This document shows positions 1 through 5,699 of a stretch of 5,699 nt of DNA, piece by piece. The position numbers were made by a program, and so were the translations under genes. The notes under the pieces were generated by a model. It worked only from the letters and a program-made list of their open reading frames with translations, was not told the origin of the DNA and ran no database searches. This stretch comes from a virus (Duplodnaviria > Heunggongvirae > Uroviricota > Caudoviricetes), in IMG/VR virus record IMGVR_UViG_2667527918_000008. One strand, written 5' to 3'. Every line of letters starts with the position of its first letter. The stretch's first letter is position 1.

Positions 1-228
1 CTAAGCAGGCGTTACAGCCTGGGGCTGTTGTTGCCCGGATCGCCAGAGAACACGATATCAGGGATTTCAGTGCCCAGTACTCCCACCGGAACGTATATAG
101 CATCCCCACAATTTTTCATTACGGGATGTTCAGAGCATTCATTACCGGGGTCATATTGCGCCCTGTCCGGGGTGCCGGATGCACATGTCTCTGGCGCAAT
201 GCCCGGGCTTTTTATTCGCACATCGTGA
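1..228 (+). CDS. Possible 3' end of an upstream gene running in from the window edge (tail-fibre-like C-terminus?); hypothetical
   Basis: Frame 1 is stop-free from position 1 to TGA at 226-228 (75 codons). The TGA overlaps a GAGG Shine-Dalgarno (227-230) placed 8 nt before the in-frame GTG at 239 of the next gene, a typical coupled-gene junction. The translation is Ser/Thr/Gly/Pro-rich with no motif I recognise. The opposite-strand ORF 12-221 is an equally long alternative. Confidence 0.25.
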   Translation, partial: LSRRYSLGLLLPGSPENTISGISVPSTPTGTYIASPQFFITGCSEHSLPGSYCALSGVPDAHVSGAMPGLFIRTS

Positions 229-238
229 GGAATGCACC

Positions 239-921
239 GTGGAAATTAAAAAAATCATTAATCCCCGTTATACCGAAAGTGGCGCAGTAGACTGTGACGT
301 TTTTTTTGACGACAGGGACCAGGCAGTCCCCTACACAGCCACCGCTGATGATGTCGCTCCGACGGGTCAGCAAATCTGGCAGGAACTGCAAAGCGGCAAA
401 TGGGGTGAGATAGCCCCATTCACTGTGACACCAGAAATGCTGGAAGCGGCCAGAGAGGCCAGACGTCAGGAAATTGAAGCATGGCGCGCAGAACAGGAGG
501 CGAAACCGCTCACGTTTGAATGGAACGGTCGTATCTGGAATGCTGGTCCCGATTCACTGGGCCGCCTGTCCCCGGTAGTCATGCTGGCAAAATCTGTCAC
601 AGCACAAACACATNNNNNNNNNNGCTGTTCACGTTTGAATGGAACGGTCGTATCTGGAATGCTGGTCCCGACTCACTGGGCCGCCTGTCCCCGGTAGTCA
701 TGCTGGCAAAATCTGTCACAGCACAAACACATATGGCGTGGAGCGATGCCGATAATCAGCAGGTGAAACTGTCGATGCCGGAACTGGAAGAACTGGCGGC
801 AGCAATGGTGCAGGCGCAGGTCGATCGCAACGATGAGATTTATCGCCGTCAGCGGGAGCTGAAGGAAGAGCTGAATAGTCTGAAGGATTTGAATTCGGTT
901 AGGAATTTTATCGTGGAATAA
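239..921 (+). CDS. Phage tail-fibre assembly / tail chaperone-like protein; reading frame interrupted by a scaffold gap (ORF-track pieces 179-697 and 520-921)
   Basis: The two ORF-track pieces encode the same peptide segment (TFEWNGRIWNAGPDSLGRLSPVVMLAKSVTAQTH) on either side of the N-run. Deleting 614-732 (119 nt) joins frame 2 at 613 to frame 1 at 733 and gives one continuous ORF of about 187 aa from GTG 239, or about 207 aa from ATG 179. GTG 239 has a GAGG SD at 227-230; ATG 179 and 185 are alternative starts. The C-terminal region (MAWSDADNQQVKLSMPELEELAAAMVQAQ...) resembles, from memory, DUF4376-type tail-fibre-assembly/chaperone proteins encoded downstream of tail-fibre genes. The functional call is unverified. 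Confidence 0.55.
511..613. repeat. Left copy of a 103-bp direct repeat flanking the N-gap
   Basis: 511-613 is identical to 630-732 except at one position (T at 553 versus C at 672), a synonymous GAT/GAC Asp codon in the respective coding frames. Sequence immediately upstream of the two copies differs (ccgct versus gctgtt). Confidence 0.9.
614..623. other. Assembly/scaffold gap (run of 10 N)
   Basis: Ten consecutive N characters. Confidence 0.95.
630..732. repeat. Right copy of the 103-bp direct repeat flanking the N-gap
   Basis: See the left copy: 102 of 103 positions identical, offset 119 nt. Confidence 0.9.
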
Positions 922-1121: not shown

Positions 1122-1979
1122 CTAATTGGGTGATAACAGATCCTGTGTATGGGCGTTTCCCTTTGTGCGTGCGTTGATGCTGGTAACGGTAAACGTCATG
1201 ATGAACACGACCGCGAATAAGACGACAATCGTCGGAGCTGGTGCGCTGTCGATAAAAAAGGACAGCCAGACACCAGTCATTGACACTATTACCGATATGC
1301 CAGTCGCCAGTAGGAGCGCAATATGAAAGCGTTGTGTCAGGAGTACTGCAATGGCGCCAGGCGCAATGAGCAGAGAAATAGAGAGAATGATACCTACTGC
1401 TTTCAGCGTCGCCACAATGGTCAGGGAAACCATGCACAGCAGCCCATAATGCAGCCATCTCGTATGCAAACCGCTTACCTGCGCCTGTTGATAATCAAAG
1501 CTGAACAGCAAAAAATCCCGCCATTTTACGCTAATAACAAGTGTAACCAGCCCGGCAATAATCACCGTCTGGATTATGTCGCCGATGGTTATCCCGAGCA
1601 TGTCGCCGAAAAGAATATGGTCAAGATGTACGTCTGGTTTAATTGCAATATACAAGATCAGACCTGCGGCAAACATGCCAGAAAAAACAATCCCCATAAC
1701 TGTATCTTGCTTGATTCGGCTGTTGTCTTTCAGGTATCCCGTCGCCACCGCGCAGAATACTCCGGCGACGAATGCCCCTGTAGCCAGAGGTAACCCCAGA
1801 ATCCAGGTAAGCACGATGCCAGGAAAAACCGCATGACTCATCGCGTCACCCATCAGTGCCCAACCTTTCAGGACCAGAAAGACCGACAGCAGCGCACAGG
1901 GTATGGAAACTACCAGTGAAATCAGCAGTGCGTGACTCATAAAGGTGAACTGCAGTGGCTCCAGTAATAATGCCATCAT
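1122..1979 (-). CDS. sitD: Mn2+/Fe2+ ABC transporter permease SitD (ABC-3 family inner-membrane component)
   Basis: 285-aa highly hydrophobic multi-spanning protein, paralogous to the adjacent permease, at the fourth position of a binding-protein/ATPase/permease/permease operon. Its start overlaps the sitC stop (ATGA, 1976-1979). TAG stop at 1122-1124. Confidence 0.92.
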   Translation of the reverse strand: MMALLLEPLQFTFMSHALLISLVVSIPCALLSVFLVLKGWALMGDAMSHAVFPGIVLTWILGLPLATGAFVAGVFCAVATGYLKDNSRIKQDTVMGIVFSGMFAAGLILYIAIKPDVHLDHILFGDMLGITIGDIIQTVIIAGLVTLVISVKWRDFLLFSFDYQQAQVSGLHTRWLHYGLLCMVSLTIVATLKAVGIILSISLLIAPGAIAVLLTQRFHIALLLATGISVIVSMTGVWLSFFIDSAPAPTIVVLFAVVFIMTFTVTSINARTKGNAHTQDLLSPN

Positions 1980-2833
1980 GAGCGATCCTCCAGCGCTTTA
2001 TGCGCACGCCGACGATTTGCCAAAAGTCCATGGGTGGGCGCAAATACAAATGCTAAAAGAAACAGCAGTGTCTGCGCCACCACGATGATTCCACCTGTCG
2101 CGCCGTCCAGAAAGTAACTGACCCACGCGCCGAGGAAACTGGTTACACTGCCAATAGTTACAGCAATTATGAGCAGGCGGGGAAAACGATCGGTTAACAA
2201 CCATGCTGTTGCACCGGGAGTCACCACCAGACAGATCACCAGAAAGGCACCAACCGTTTGCAGCGCCGCAACGGTCGAAACCGACAGCAGGGTGAAGAAG
2301 AGGATTTTTAATCTGCCCGGATGTAATCCAATAGCACGGGCGTGATTCTCGTCGAAAAAGGTCACCATAAGATCTTTCCATTTGAAAAAAAGCACGATGA
2401 TCGAGAGAATGCCAATGATAGTGAGTTGCAGGATATCCGCCGGATCGATTGCCAGAATATTGCCCAGGACGATGGTCTGAATGTTCACGGATGTCGGGTT
2501 CAATGACACCATAAACAGCCCCAGGCCAAAAAAGGACGAGAAGATCAGGCCGATGATGGCATCTTCTTTTAAGCGGGTGCGTTGGTTAAGAAACAGCATG
2601 CTGCCCGCTGCCAGTCCGCCGGAAAAGAAGGCTCCCAGAGAAAACGGAAGCCCCAGCATATATGCCCCCGCAACACCCGGGACAATAGAGTGCGACAGCG
2701 CATCGCCAATCAGCGACCAGCCTTTTAGCATCAGATAGCATGACAGGAAAGCGCAGAGACCGCCGACCATTGCCGAGACCCACATCGCATTGAGCATATA
2801 TTCATAGCTGAAGGGTTCCAGTAGCACGTTCAT
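1976..2833 (-). CDS. sitC: Mn2+/Fe2+ ABC transporter permease SitC (ABC-3 family inner-membrane component)
   Basis: 285-aa hydrophobic membrane protein with clear similarity to the SitD ORF (shared LKGW..GDA.SH..PG core). Its start overlaps the sitB stop (ATGA, 2830-2833). Confidence 0.92.
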
Positions 2834-3657
2834 CTTGCTTCCCTCTGCACCGCTGACGGTCGATGTGCCACAAAAGGGCGTTCATCGTCAGTAATAATGC
2901 TTTCTTCCGAGCCGTTAAGTGTGACATGGCGCAGTACGCCGCTAAAAGCCAGCTCCAGGTTCTCGGCTGTAAAAGTGGTGTCTGTCGGCCCGCTTGCCAG
3001 GACGGTGCCTTTGACCATGACCGTATAATCGCAAAATGTCGTGACTGAGCCGAGATTGTGCGTTGAGACAAGCATCGTTTTGCCTTCCGCGCGTAACTCC
3101 CTCAACAGGCTGATGATTTTCGCTTCGGTTTTCACATCAACGCCGGTAAAAGGTTCATCCAGCAGGATCACATCACCCTGCTGTGCAATTGCTCTCGCCA
3201 GAAAGACGCGTTTCTTTTGTCCACCGGAAAGCTCGCCGATTTGACGATGGCGAAAATCCACCATATCGACACGTTCCAGCGCATCGGTGACAATCTGACG
3301 ATCCCTCTTTTTGGCTATACGCAACATACCCATATGCCCATAGCGGCCCATCATCACCACATCTTCCACCAGTACAGGAAATGACCAGTCAACCTCTTCT
3401 GACTGAGGGACGTAGGCAACCAGGTTTTTCTGTAGCGCCTGTCGCGTGGGAATACCCAGAACAGATATCTTTCCGCTGGTCAGACGCACAAATCCCATAA
3501 TCGCTTTAAACAACGTCGATTTTCCGGAACCGTTTACCCCAACCAGAGCGGCAATAGATCCACTTGGTACTGTGAAGGATGCATCGCGCAGTGCTGTGTG
3601 CCCGTTACGCCAGGTGACAGTAACATCATTAACGACAATGCCTGCAGATTGCATCAT
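2830..3657 (-). CDS. sitB: Mn2+/Fe2+ ABC transporter ATP-binding protein SitB
   Basis: 275 aa with Walker [13 protein letters not shown] signature LSGGQKKR, Walker B VILLDEP and an H-loop STHN. Its ATG (3655-3657) overlaps the sitA TAA (3657-3659) by one base. Confidence 0.95.
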
Positions 3658-4571
3658 TATTTCTCCCTTTTCCCGGCTTTAATTCCCTGTACCAGCGTAC
3701 TGGTAGTAACCTTAAGAAGGTCGATATACGTAGGTACCGGGCCGTTTTCTGTGCTCAGGGAATCGACATAGAGCACACCGCCGTAGTGTGCGCCGGTTTC
3801 ACGCGCAACCTGACGCGCTGGTTTATCGGAAATCGTACTCTCGCTAAAGACTGCCGGGATATGATTTTTCTTAACTATATCAACAACCTTACGTACCTGC
3901 TGCGGTGTTCCTTGTTGATCGGCATTAATCGGCCACAGATAAAGCTCTTTTAGCCCCAAATCGCGTGCGAGATAAGAAAAAGCCCCTTCACTGGTGACCA
4001 TCCATCGCTGATTCTCAGGGAGTTCCGTAATCTGCTTACGCAGGGGGGCAAGGGTTTGGGTAATCTTGGCTTTATAAGTATCGGCATTACGTTGGTAGGT
4101 TTGTGCATTTGCCGGATCGTATTTTATCAACGCATCACGAATATTATCGACGTAAATCAGAGCATTATCTGGCGACATCCATGCATGGGGATTAGGTTTG
4201 CCCTCATAGGGTCCTTCGGTGATCCCTACTGGCGTCACACCCGAAGAGACAATTACTTCTGGAACCCCATTGAGATGCTGGTAAAAGCGTTGGAACCACA
4301 ATTCCAGATTCATACCATTGGCGAGAATCAGTTGTGCCCCCTGCGCACGTTTAATATCGCCAGGGGTAGGCTGATACTCATGAATTTCTGCACCAGGCTT
4401 GGTTATGGATGAGACTTCTGCAGCATCTCCAGCCACGTTTTTGGCCATATCCGCGATGATGGTAAATGTTGTAATGACCTTGAATTTTTCAGTTGCACTT
4501 GCCTGAAATGCGATCGAGCAGGTGAGGGCGAGGCACCCCAAGAGCATGGTTACTTTTTTTATTGAGTGCAT
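3657..4571 (-). CDS. sitA: Mn2+/Fe2+ ABC transporter periplasmic substrate-binding protein SitA (cluster A-I metal-binding protein, PsaA/YfeA/MntC-like)
   Basis: 304 aa with an N-terminal signal peptide ([26 protein letters not shown]). Candidate metal-ligand positions are in the expected order for the family: His in EIHEYQPTP, His in NPHAWMSP, Glu in TSEGAFSY and Asp in YVDSLS. It is the first gene of the operon, with only a weak SD (AGG about 9 nt upstream). Confidence 0.93.
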
Positions 4572-4603
4572 AATTTAGTACCTATAGTGAGCAAAATTAG
4601 AAC

Positions 4604-4625
4604 AAACATAGCAACGGCTATGTTT
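4604..4625 (-). promoter_or_regulatory. Predicted MntR (Mn2+-responsive repressor) operator
   Basis: Perfect palindrome AAACATAGC-AACG-GCTATGTTT (9-bp arms, 4-bp spacer), 33-54 bp upstream of the sitA ATG and overlapping the predicted -10/+1. It matches the AACATAGC...GCTATGTT MntR box as I recall it from enterobacterial mntH/sitA promoters. Confidence 0.7.
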
Positions 4626-4652
4626 TATAGCATAACCTATACAAAATGAAAA
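4624..4652 (-). promoter_or_regulatory. Predicted sigma70 promoter of the sitABCD operon
   Basis: Read on the minus strand: -35 TTTTCA (4647-4652), a 17-nt spacer, then -10 TATAAA (4624-4629). This places the transcript start roughly 50 nt upstream of the sitA ATG. Prediction by eye only. Confidence 0.45.
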
Positions 4653-4666
4653 TAATTATCATTAAC
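4648..4666 (-). promoter_or_regulatory. Predicted Fur box (iron-responsive repressor site)
   Basis: Minus-strand GTTAATGATAATTATTTTC matches the 19-bp Fur consensus GATAATGATAATCATTATC at about 16 of 19 positions and overlaps the predicted -35. Confidence 0.65.
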
Positions 4667-4778
4667 AGCTTTGAGGCCTAAAACAGGGATTAGGTTGTTT
4701 CCTGCTGGCGACATGATATTGAGGAAAAAAGTAGAGCAGCTATTAGGCTTTGAAATGACTTTATGAGGAAAATTGTTG

Positions 4779-4862
4779 ATGGCAAAAATGGGGCAAAAAA
4801 GAGTGGGTTATCGTAGCTTATTGTTGTCGCTGATAATGTTTAACATATTGAAAAATAAATAA
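4779..4862 (+). CDS. Candidate small ORF (27 aa, MAKMGQKRVGYRSLLLSLIMFNILKNK); hypothetical small hydrophobic peptide
   Basis: ATG at 4779 preceded by GAGGA (4765-4769) with 9-nt spacing. Basic N-terminus followed by a hydrophobic stretch. No homology could be assessed; it sits in AT-rich DNA where chance ORFs are common. Confidence 0.15.
   Translation: MAKMGQKRVGYRSLLLSLIMFNILKNK
4781..4800. repeat. Pair of GG(G)GCAAA motifs spaced 11 bp, containing the 12-mer AAATGGGGCAAA (4786-4797)
   Basis: GGCAAAAATGGGGCAAAAAA. The 12-mer AAATGGGGCAAA recurs exactly at 4972-4983. Confidence 0.6.
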
Positions 4863-4971
4863 AATACTTATGAGTCAGATAGTTGTGATTTTTGCCCTTA
4901 CTTGTTCAGGTTGTATTGTTCTTTCTTTGTAATTTGTTGATTTTCTTGCATTATTTCAGTTCTCTGGTACT

Positions 4972-4994
4972 AAATGGGGCAAATTGGGGGCAAA
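4972..4994. repeat. Second pair of GGGGCAAA motifs spaced 11 bp (AAATGGGGCAAA then TTGGGGGCAAA), 9 bp from the integrase stop codon
   Basis: Exact 12-mer match to 4786-4797 followed by a degenerate copy one helical turn away, immediately 3' of the integrase gene. Candidate recombinase arm-type or accessory-protein binding sites. Confidence 0.6.
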
Positions 4995-5002
4995 CTTTGC
5001 AA

Positions 5003-5656
5003 CTACGATAACCGCGCATTCAACATGGCTATCTGTTCGTCGTTCATGTCATCAATCCACATACCGTAAATTTCATACACCATTTGCGCAGTTTCATGCC
5101 CCATCTGGCTGGCTATAAATGCCGGGTTCGCTCCTGCCGTCAACAGCCAGCAGGCAAAAGTATGTCGCGTATGGTACGGATTACGGCGGCGAATACCAGC
5201 ACGTTTTACTGCTGCATTCCATCTTGTACCCAAACTGCTTACCGAGTAATAAGGTTTCTGTTTTTCGTTACACACCCTGGGCATGAAAACAAAATGCAGT
5301 TTTTGTTTTTCAGTTCTGCCGTACTCCCGATGATAAAAAGTGATTTCGCTTTTGCGATGATGCCCGGTCAGTTTGTATTGCTCCTTCAGTGCTTCAAGAG
5401 CCGGCTGCAGTAATGCTACCGTCCGGATCCCGGCATTTGTTTTTGGGGGACCGAACATATCAAGTATCGTCAGGTTTCTTCTGACATTCACAATTCCCTT
5501 CTCGAAATCCACATCCTCCCACGCCAGAGCTGCCAGTTCCCCGTGACGAAGCCCGGAGTAAACGGCAAATTTCCACAAGTTTTGGCTCTGTCCTTTTTCA
5601 CTTTCCATTAATGCATTGAATTCTGTTTTAGATAACGGGTCAGGTAATGCTGCCAA
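5003..5656 (-). CDS. int: Tyrosine recombinase / phage integrase, C-terminal catalytic domain; the N-terminal part is either disrupted or lies beyond the window (possible pseudogene)
   Basis: The translation contains the conserved catalytic-domain elements GLRHGEL (box I Arg), HTRHTFA (box II) and MGHETAQMVYEIYG (C-terminal Tyr region). The frame meets an in-frame TAA at 5666-5668, so the only in-window start is a TTG directly after that stop. An intact integrase would be about 330-420 aa, not 217. Confidence 0.8.
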   Translation of the reverse strand: MAALPDPLSKTEFNALMESEKGQSQNLWKFAVYSGLRHGELAALAWEDVDFEKGIVNVRRNLTILDMFGPPKTNAGIRTVALLQPALEALKEQYKLTGHHRKSEITFYHREYGRTEKQKLHFVFMPRVCNEKQKPYYSVSSLGTRWNAAVKRAGIRRRNPYHTRHTFACWLLTAGANPAFIASQMGHETAQMVYEIYGMWIDDMNDEQIAMLNARLS

Positions 5657-5699
5657 CTTACTGATTTAGTGTATGATGGTGATTTTAAGGTGCTTGCGT

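Follow-up and report, generated by a model that had tools for sequence, protein, structure and literature searches.

The locus described here raises a simple question: what are the short direct repeats that stand in pairs in the spacer between the sit genes and the 3' end of an integrase gene? The DNA analysed is a stretch of 5,699 bp of phage sequence, which we refer to as the window, and one pair of repeats abuts the integrase gene. An initial annotation of this DNA proposed that the repeats may be binding sites of the recombinase or of an accessory factor, or else remnants of an att site. These proposals differ in which protein would read the repeats and in whether they belong to a larger attachment site. 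Here, we describe a comparative analysis of the spacer, of its relatives in prophages and viral contigs, and of the integrase encoded beside it.

Results

Genes of the window and state of the integrase

The features of the window are collected in Table 1. Positions 3006-5699 are 100% identical to a locus of E. coli ECMA0423 (L122, CP178302.1), and the integrase gene is the 3' part of intR, which in E. coli encodes the integrase of the cryptic prophage Rac. The portions of intR that encode the arm-binding and core-binding parts of the protein are absent from the window, and at L122 2173-2940 about 422 bp of the gene (roughly codons 58-198) have been replaced by IS1. As a result of this interruption and loss, the integrase adjoining the attachment site of the window cannot be functional.

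Table 1. Positions and strands of the features of the window; for repeat units, the strand is that on which the TGCCCC form is read
Feature	Position	Strand	Remarks
Tail-fibre assembly gene (tfa)	179-921		interrupted by N gap
sitDCBA	1122-4571	-	
Spacer, 431 bp	4572-5002		between sit genes and int
Outermost P-arm unit U5, degenerate	4781-4789	-	reads ATTTTTGCC(A) on int strand
P-arm unit GGGGCAAAAA (TTTTTGCCCC on int strand)	4790-4799	-	exact motif
Motif-like copy TTTTTGCCCT, opposite orientation	4889-4898	+	immediately left of core
Phage-borne ttcA 5' end, translation MQENQQITKKEQYNLNK*	4898-4951	-	start codon at 4951
26-bp Rac att core TTGTTCAGGTTGTATTGTTCTTTCTT	4902-4927		crossover region inside ttcA codons
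IHF consensus AATCAACAAATTA, candidate H'-like bend site	4930-4942	-	between core and P' pair
P'-arm unit GGGGCAAA, core-proximal	4976-4983	-	conserved across 80 loci
P'-arm unit GGGGCAAA, int-proximal	4987-4994	-	8 nt from int stop; conserved across 80 loci
Tyrosine integrase, 3' 217 codons	5003-5656	-	Pfam Phage_integrase match
intR 3' part, catalytic domain only	5003-5642	-	96-97% nucleotide identity to E. coli intR
IS1 end interrupting intR	5643-5699		100% matches to annotated IS1 family transposase features

Two further observations concern the flanking genes. A gap of 10 N in tfa (614-623) separates two near-identical copies of a segment of ~110 bp (504-733), which appear to stem from scaffolding or assembly and not from a true duplication. 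The promoter region of sitA (4604-4663) contains a perfect MntR-type palindrome, AAACATAGC-N4-GCTATGTTT, at 4604-4625, which was mis-scored as a terminator and was the sole "terminator" in our promoter and terminator scan, and a Fur-box-like sequence, GAAAATAATTATCATT, at 4648-4663.

Repeat words in the spacer

A scan of both strands of the window found the word GGGGCAAA, which reads TTTGCCCC on the integrase strand, in exact form at 4790, 4976 and 4987. All three copies are on the plus strand and together span 205 bp; 0.37 copies were expected, and a count of 3 was reached in only 1 of 200 shuffles. The 12-mer AAATGGGGCAAA, which the initial annotation had noticed twice at a distance of 186 bp, is indeed present at 4786-4797 and 4972-4983, and the 11-bp spacing given for the right-hand pair is correct when measured from start to start (4976-4983 and 4987-4994). 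Two details of that description have to be amended. The second left-hand copy does lie at 11 bp; it was said to follow the first, however, whereas a shorter GGCAAA (4781) precedes the GGCAAA at 4792. The right-hand pair does adjoin the stop codon of the integrase gene (TAG, minus strand, 5003-5005), from which the last repeat is separated by 8 nt, not 9.

A one-mismatch, inverted copy of GGGGCAAA is present near the core at 4891-4898. It is not conserved, its place being taken in PHB10 by a direct TTTTGCCA shifted by several bases and in locus L111 by no copy at all. We set it aside as a fifth site on these grounds, and it is probably without function; not every copy of the motif, then, need be functional. 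A different direct repeat in the same region, formed by TTATGAGGAAAATTGTTG (4761-4778) and TTATGAGTCAGATAGTTG (4868-4885), which are 107 bp apart and 78% identical, is probably due to chance, since its left copy falls outside the DNA homologous to Rac.

A complete attP of the Rac type

The spacer was found to contain a whole attP and not just scattered sites, so that the suggestion of att-site remnants was well founded. Its P arm extends over 4781-4901, its core over 4902-4927 and its P' arm over 4928-5002; the P' arm abuts the 3' end of intR, and the repeats occupy the outer ends of both arms. The 26-bp core lies in the 5' end of ttcA with an IntR-type integrase gene adjacent, as in a Rac-type attP, and window positions 4902-4927 are identical to the annotated attP of Rac-SA53 (KU052037 722-747). 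Ordinary Rac prophages (attL) match the window from 4902 rightwards only, the DNA to the left of that position being bacterial ttcA. The target of integration is ttcA, a protein gene; Rfam and tRNA scans detected no tRNA and no known RNA family overlapping the spacer, and the absence of tRNA matches indicates that the target is not a tRNA. In integrated prophages, the fragment of ttcA carried by the phage runs on as full ttcA, and the phage-borne 5' end replaces that of the host upon integration.

On the left, the P arm of the window matches K-12 Rac and the sit-carrying prophage SPF_0923 on their attR sides, and also E. coli Jnd12, whose locus is in the attP configuration. The homology to the Rac P arm begins exactly at 4781, with the first repeat unit; the match to phage 21 and lambda-like phages in their sit regions extends as far as 4768. 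This makes the repeats the outermost parts of a recombination module of ~215 bp, and, because the cargo homology stops 13 bp before the first unit, the sit cargo and the Rac-type att/int module meet at a mosaic boundary. The Jnd12 locus shows the same order of cargo, attP and int as the window, together with two places that match intR. This order probably arose from two Rac-type prophages in tandem at ttcA. The sitABCD genes and their promoter are also carried, at ~92% identity, as b-region cargo by phage 21 (OL657228, L209) and by lambda-like hybrids.

The only exact match to the IHF consensus in the window, WATCAANNNNTTR, occurs at 4930-4942, and is statistically weak, at least one match having been obtained in 46 of 200 shuffles. 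The part AATCAACAA of this candidate site is kept in PHB10 and L111.

The P-arm array and its deletion

Alignments revealed that K-12 Rac, E. coli Jnd12 and SPF_0923 are 31 bp longer than the window at the left pair. Their longer array, GGCAAAAAT GGGGCAAAA CGCTGCAAAA GGGGCAAAAAA GGGGCAAAAAAA, comprises five helically phased units whose GCA trinucleotides are spaced by 11, 10, 9 and 11 bp, and U5 of the window corresponds in the alignment to the final unit of K-12 and Jnd12. Units 2-4 are missing in both the window and L122; the longer array is present in the best full-length match among 5,426 complete E. coli genomes. Read from these alignments, the left pair of the window is the remnant of an array of 4-5 units after a 31-bp deletion, which by the same comparison took U2-U4 and left the unit at 4790-4799 as a fusion of U1 and U4.

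The P arms were compared in six or seven independent attP or attR sequences, most of the 80 family loci described below contributing the int-proximal arm only. In intact relatives, two units and two further units are separated by a gap that is not conserved and is as long as one or two units (2+gap+2), with unit spacings of 9-11 bp that track the helical repeat. The same motif stands in the same orientation across the core in PHB10, whose integrase is 69% identical, and in L111. At ~43% integrase identity, the Stx1 phage HUN/2013 has a 2+gap+2 array ~190 bp past int, and a Yersinia phage likewise has an array in the other arm.

When 2.9 million viral contigs were scanned for the exact pattern of a 2+2 array, 39 matches were obtained. 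About 25 of these are of an enterobacterial, att-like type, many of them located 200-650 bp from the ends of prophage contigs or ~190 bp past a VT1-like int; the remainder are simple 11-nt tandem repeats in GC-rich contigs. With arrays at contig ends among them, these matches are supportive but not decisive. A four-unit TGCCCC array with 12-bp spacing was also seen in Silvania confinis (L127 674-726), ~1.3 kb upstream of a truncated IntR-like gene, and may represent the P arm of an element that is adjacent or in tandem.

Conservation of the P' pair beside the integrase gene

The initial annotation had named two findings that would speak against its proposal, occurrence of the motif at chance frequency and lack of conservation beside related integrase genes; neither was observed. 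One genome per species was scanned, which yielded 80 loci of the IntR family with integrases 42-100% identical. (A search for IntR in viral contigs gave 80 near-identical loci, most of them ending at the int stop codon, which were unusable for judging divergence.) The sequence TGCCCC-N5-TGCCCC is present at the 3' end of int with no more than one mismatch in 75 of the 80 loci and with no more than three in 79, so that the pair is kept in 75-79 of these relatives. Across both strands of the 80 loci (400,434 bp), 60 pairs of TGCCCC at a spacing of 10-12 bp were counted against ~0.4 expected, so that over these 400 kb the pair exceeds chance ~150-fold. In 57 of the 60 the spacing is exactly 11 bp and the pair is on the int strand at the int 3' end; the other three sit in arrays resembling those of the P arm. 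The motif follows the IntR family in hosts from Escherichia to Yersinia, Enterovibrio and Photobacterium.

Two sets of relatives are informative as to the level at which the pair is maintained. The members of a group of ~25 species, with IntR orthologues 60-74% identical, are all integrated at ttcA and all keep (T/A)TGCCCC-N5-(T/A)TGCCCC just past the int stop codon, in non-coding DNA, where spacers and flanks vary freely around invariant hexamers. Among 46 more distant relatives with other target genes, 44 have the pair within the coding tail of int. There it occupies all three reading frames and is translated into unrelated peptides (FAPSMPH, AVPHGCPK, NAPIVPLK, TAPHMPPE), which indicates that the constraint acts on DNA and not on protein.

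At the int 3' ends of the Stx-phage-type and distant loci (L114-L166; L006 2740-2769), a proline codon that lies wholly on the motif is usually CCC. From this codon usage and the use of three frames, the tail peptide of the integrase may itself be shaped by the DNA signal. Pantoea sp. alder81 (L095 3230-3650) is the sole locus of the 80 without a TGCCCC pair after int; its DNA downstream of int is unrelated to ttcA, and the att side may have been replaced.

The arm-binding domain of IntR

Full-length IntR matches the Pfam family PF12167, Arm-DNA-bind_2, over residues 5-69 (E = 3.9e-26), and this N-terminal arm-binding domain is the best-conserved part of the IntR family. Smyshlyaev et al. placed the domain in the IntBPP-1 subgroup of arm-binding recombinases, which includes the putative integrases of Bordetella BPP-1, a Stx2a phage and Gifsy-2, and predicted that it adopts the canonical fold, with three beta-strands and a single helix (PMC8138268). 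A search of the PDB with full-length IntR returned distant matches to the catalytic domain only, and a profile search of the PDB with the arm-binding domain gave no credible homologue.

Discussion

The combined evidence leads us to propose, with a probability of roughly 0.8, that the GGGGCAAA words of the window are sites of the arm type, read by the Arm-DNA-bind_2 domain of IntR. The motif is present in both arms, is unrelated to the core, and co-occurs with an integrase lineage that has the corresponding N-terminal domain; to be present on both arms and tied to one integrase lineage is the defining feature of arm-type sites. The suggestion of arm-type sites made in the initial annotation thus gains support from the arm-binding domain of IntR, from the position of the core between the two repeat clusters, and from the conservation of the int-adjacent pair.

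By analogy with lambda Int, each IntR protomer would be heterobivalent, with its N-terminal domain on an arm unit reading TTTGCCCC and its core-binding and catalytic domains on a core-type site. Bends of the IHF type, for which the sequence at 4930-4942 is a candidate, would fold the arms back onto the core. Through this bridging and folding, the P' pair and the 2+gap+2 array of the P arm would scaffold the intasome and, together with XisR, set the directionality of recombination.

The motif could instead be read by a different protein. Its tandem, direct and helically phased copies in the int-distal P arm recall the X1, X1.5 and X2 sites of lambda, and XisR, the excisionase and recombination directionality factor, shifts an attR fragment of 294 bp in which the array is included (PMC4632033). 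The motif is, however, paired in the P' arm as well, which is not the case for the Xis sites of lambda. We mapped the published gel-shift primers onto the L167 sequence in order to place the fragments. AttM (L167 2169-2459), which XisR did not shift (PMC4632033), comprises the array in full and the P arm as far as the core edge, whereas the shifted AttR (L167 2290-2583) also includes the core and the bacterial side. These published results locate the XisR sites at the core or to its right, and it is very unlikely that the repeats are bound by XisR; of the "recombinase or accessory factor" originally considered, the recombinase is retained and Xis is disfavoured. Some other conserved protein, such as a host nucleoid protein or a further phage factor, might also occupy the repeats in place of the integrase, given that conservation shows a function of the DNA but leaves the binding protein unnamed. 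This we consider unlikely: the motif tracks one integrase family across hosts and keeps its place beside the int 3' end, it is unlike the IHF consensus, and the high conservation of the N-terminal arm-binding domain in these integrases fits a shared arm motif.

Readings in which the repeats serve no recombination protein fare worse. The right-hand pair is 21-43 bp upstream of the start codon of the phage-borne ttcA (4951), and an integrated phage must supply the ttcA 5' end, so that the pair might be a promoter or regulatory element of that gene. Yet the motif is absent upstream of native ttcA (the bacterial attR side of SPF_0923 and K-12), the pair is equally conserved beside integrases that target other loci, the same motif builds the P-arm array, and a promoter scan gave no sigma-70-like match over the pair; a role in ttcA regulation is accordingly hard to credit. 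It is just as improbable that the repeats are a product of chance or slippage in A-rich DNA of low complexity, or that the P' pair is a relic of an ancestral int coding tail. The region is AT-rich, and the 31-bp deletion between units shows that the repeats recombine or slip, but the excess of GGGGCAAA in the window and that of the pairs in 400 kb speak against chance, and hexamers that stay invariant amid variable spacers, both in non-coding DNA and in three reading frames, speak against chance and relic alike.

The arrangement of the repeats resembles that of the arm-type sites of lambda. As with P1, P2 and P'1-P'3 of lambda, short direct repeats unrelated to the core stand in both arms of an attP of ~215-250 bp, the P' sites are contiguous, with a period of about one helical turn, and adjoin the int stop codon, and the stretch from these sites to the core contains an IHF-type site (a candidate one here). 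The units also lie at similar distances from the core, with the two P' units at ~+65 and ~+76 and the complete P-arm array of K-12 at ~-92 to -135. The arm-site motif of lambda, which is bound by the N-terminal domain of lambda Int, is C/AAGTCACTAT; here it is TTTGCCCC, and the domain is Arm-DNA-bind_2 instead of Arm-DNA-bind_1. The numbers of units differ as well, with two P' and 4-5 P units against three and two, and the core lies inside the protein gene ttcA.

Phage 21 provides a second parallel. It is a lambdoid phage with tandem subsites directly beside the int 3' end, annotated as "P1P2P3, consensus YYTTCCCCAAAA" in OL657228; it carries sitABCD, there in the b region, and it rebuilds the end of a host gene, there icd. 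The motif and the type of integrase are nevertheless different, the Int of phage 21 being lambda-like, and homology to the window stops at 4768. A third comparison is with Rac-SA53 and the Rac prophage whose attL, attR and attB were defined by Liu et al. in 2015 (PMC4632033), which share the 26-bp core and intR. The P' pair and P arm of the window are 93-100% identical to those of K-12 Rac, from which the window differs in its attP configuration, in the loss of 31 bp of the array and in its sit cargo. Liu et al. defined only the core of Rac and showed that XisR binds an attR fragment, leaving the arm sites undescribed (PMC4632033). Literature searches, which were incomplete in coverage, for arm sites of Rac/IntR, DUF3596 and Stx/933W/Gifsy-2 integrases and for the motif strings found no description. 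Arm-type sites, which are textbook elements in lambda, thus seem to have gone undescribed for the integrase subgroup of Rac, Gifsy-2, BPP-1 and many Shiga-toxin phages.

The element in the window is itself of an ordinary kind, and a decayed copy. With intR cut by IS1 and U2-U4 gone from the five-unit P-arm array, this attP is a fossil and the system is dead in this genome; with a dead integrase and a shortened P arm, nothing may be bound at these sites today. For the window, then, the spacer is understood as an attP in decay, flanked on one side by a sit-carrying lambdoid prophage and on the other by an integrase of the Rac type that IS1 has broken. The family-wide motif written into the coding tails of int is a modest comparative finding in its own right. 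A signature made up of two TGCCCC units spaced by 11 bp at the 3' end of int, together with the 2+gap+2 array on the other side of the core, could mark the limits of attP, attL and attR in these medically relevant prophages and could guide the design of integration vectors. It also makes cross-talk between the integrases of co-resident prophages testable.

We suggest, tentatively and as a possibility that we would not favour over its opposite, that all enterobacterial integrases with Arm-DNA-bind_2 (the IntBPP-1 type) share one arm code, TGCCCC at 11 bp, whatever their core. Such a group would cover Rac, the Stx1 and Stx2 phages and many others. If this is true, the tail peptide of the integrase would in most members be a by-product of a DNA signal, and the motif would be a simple marker for predicting the att boundaries of Stx prophages. 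Furthermore, co-resident integrases, such as those of a Rac-like and a Stx prophage that share an EHEC cell, could sit on one another's arms, and arms occupied in this way could alter the integration or excision of the partner prophage.
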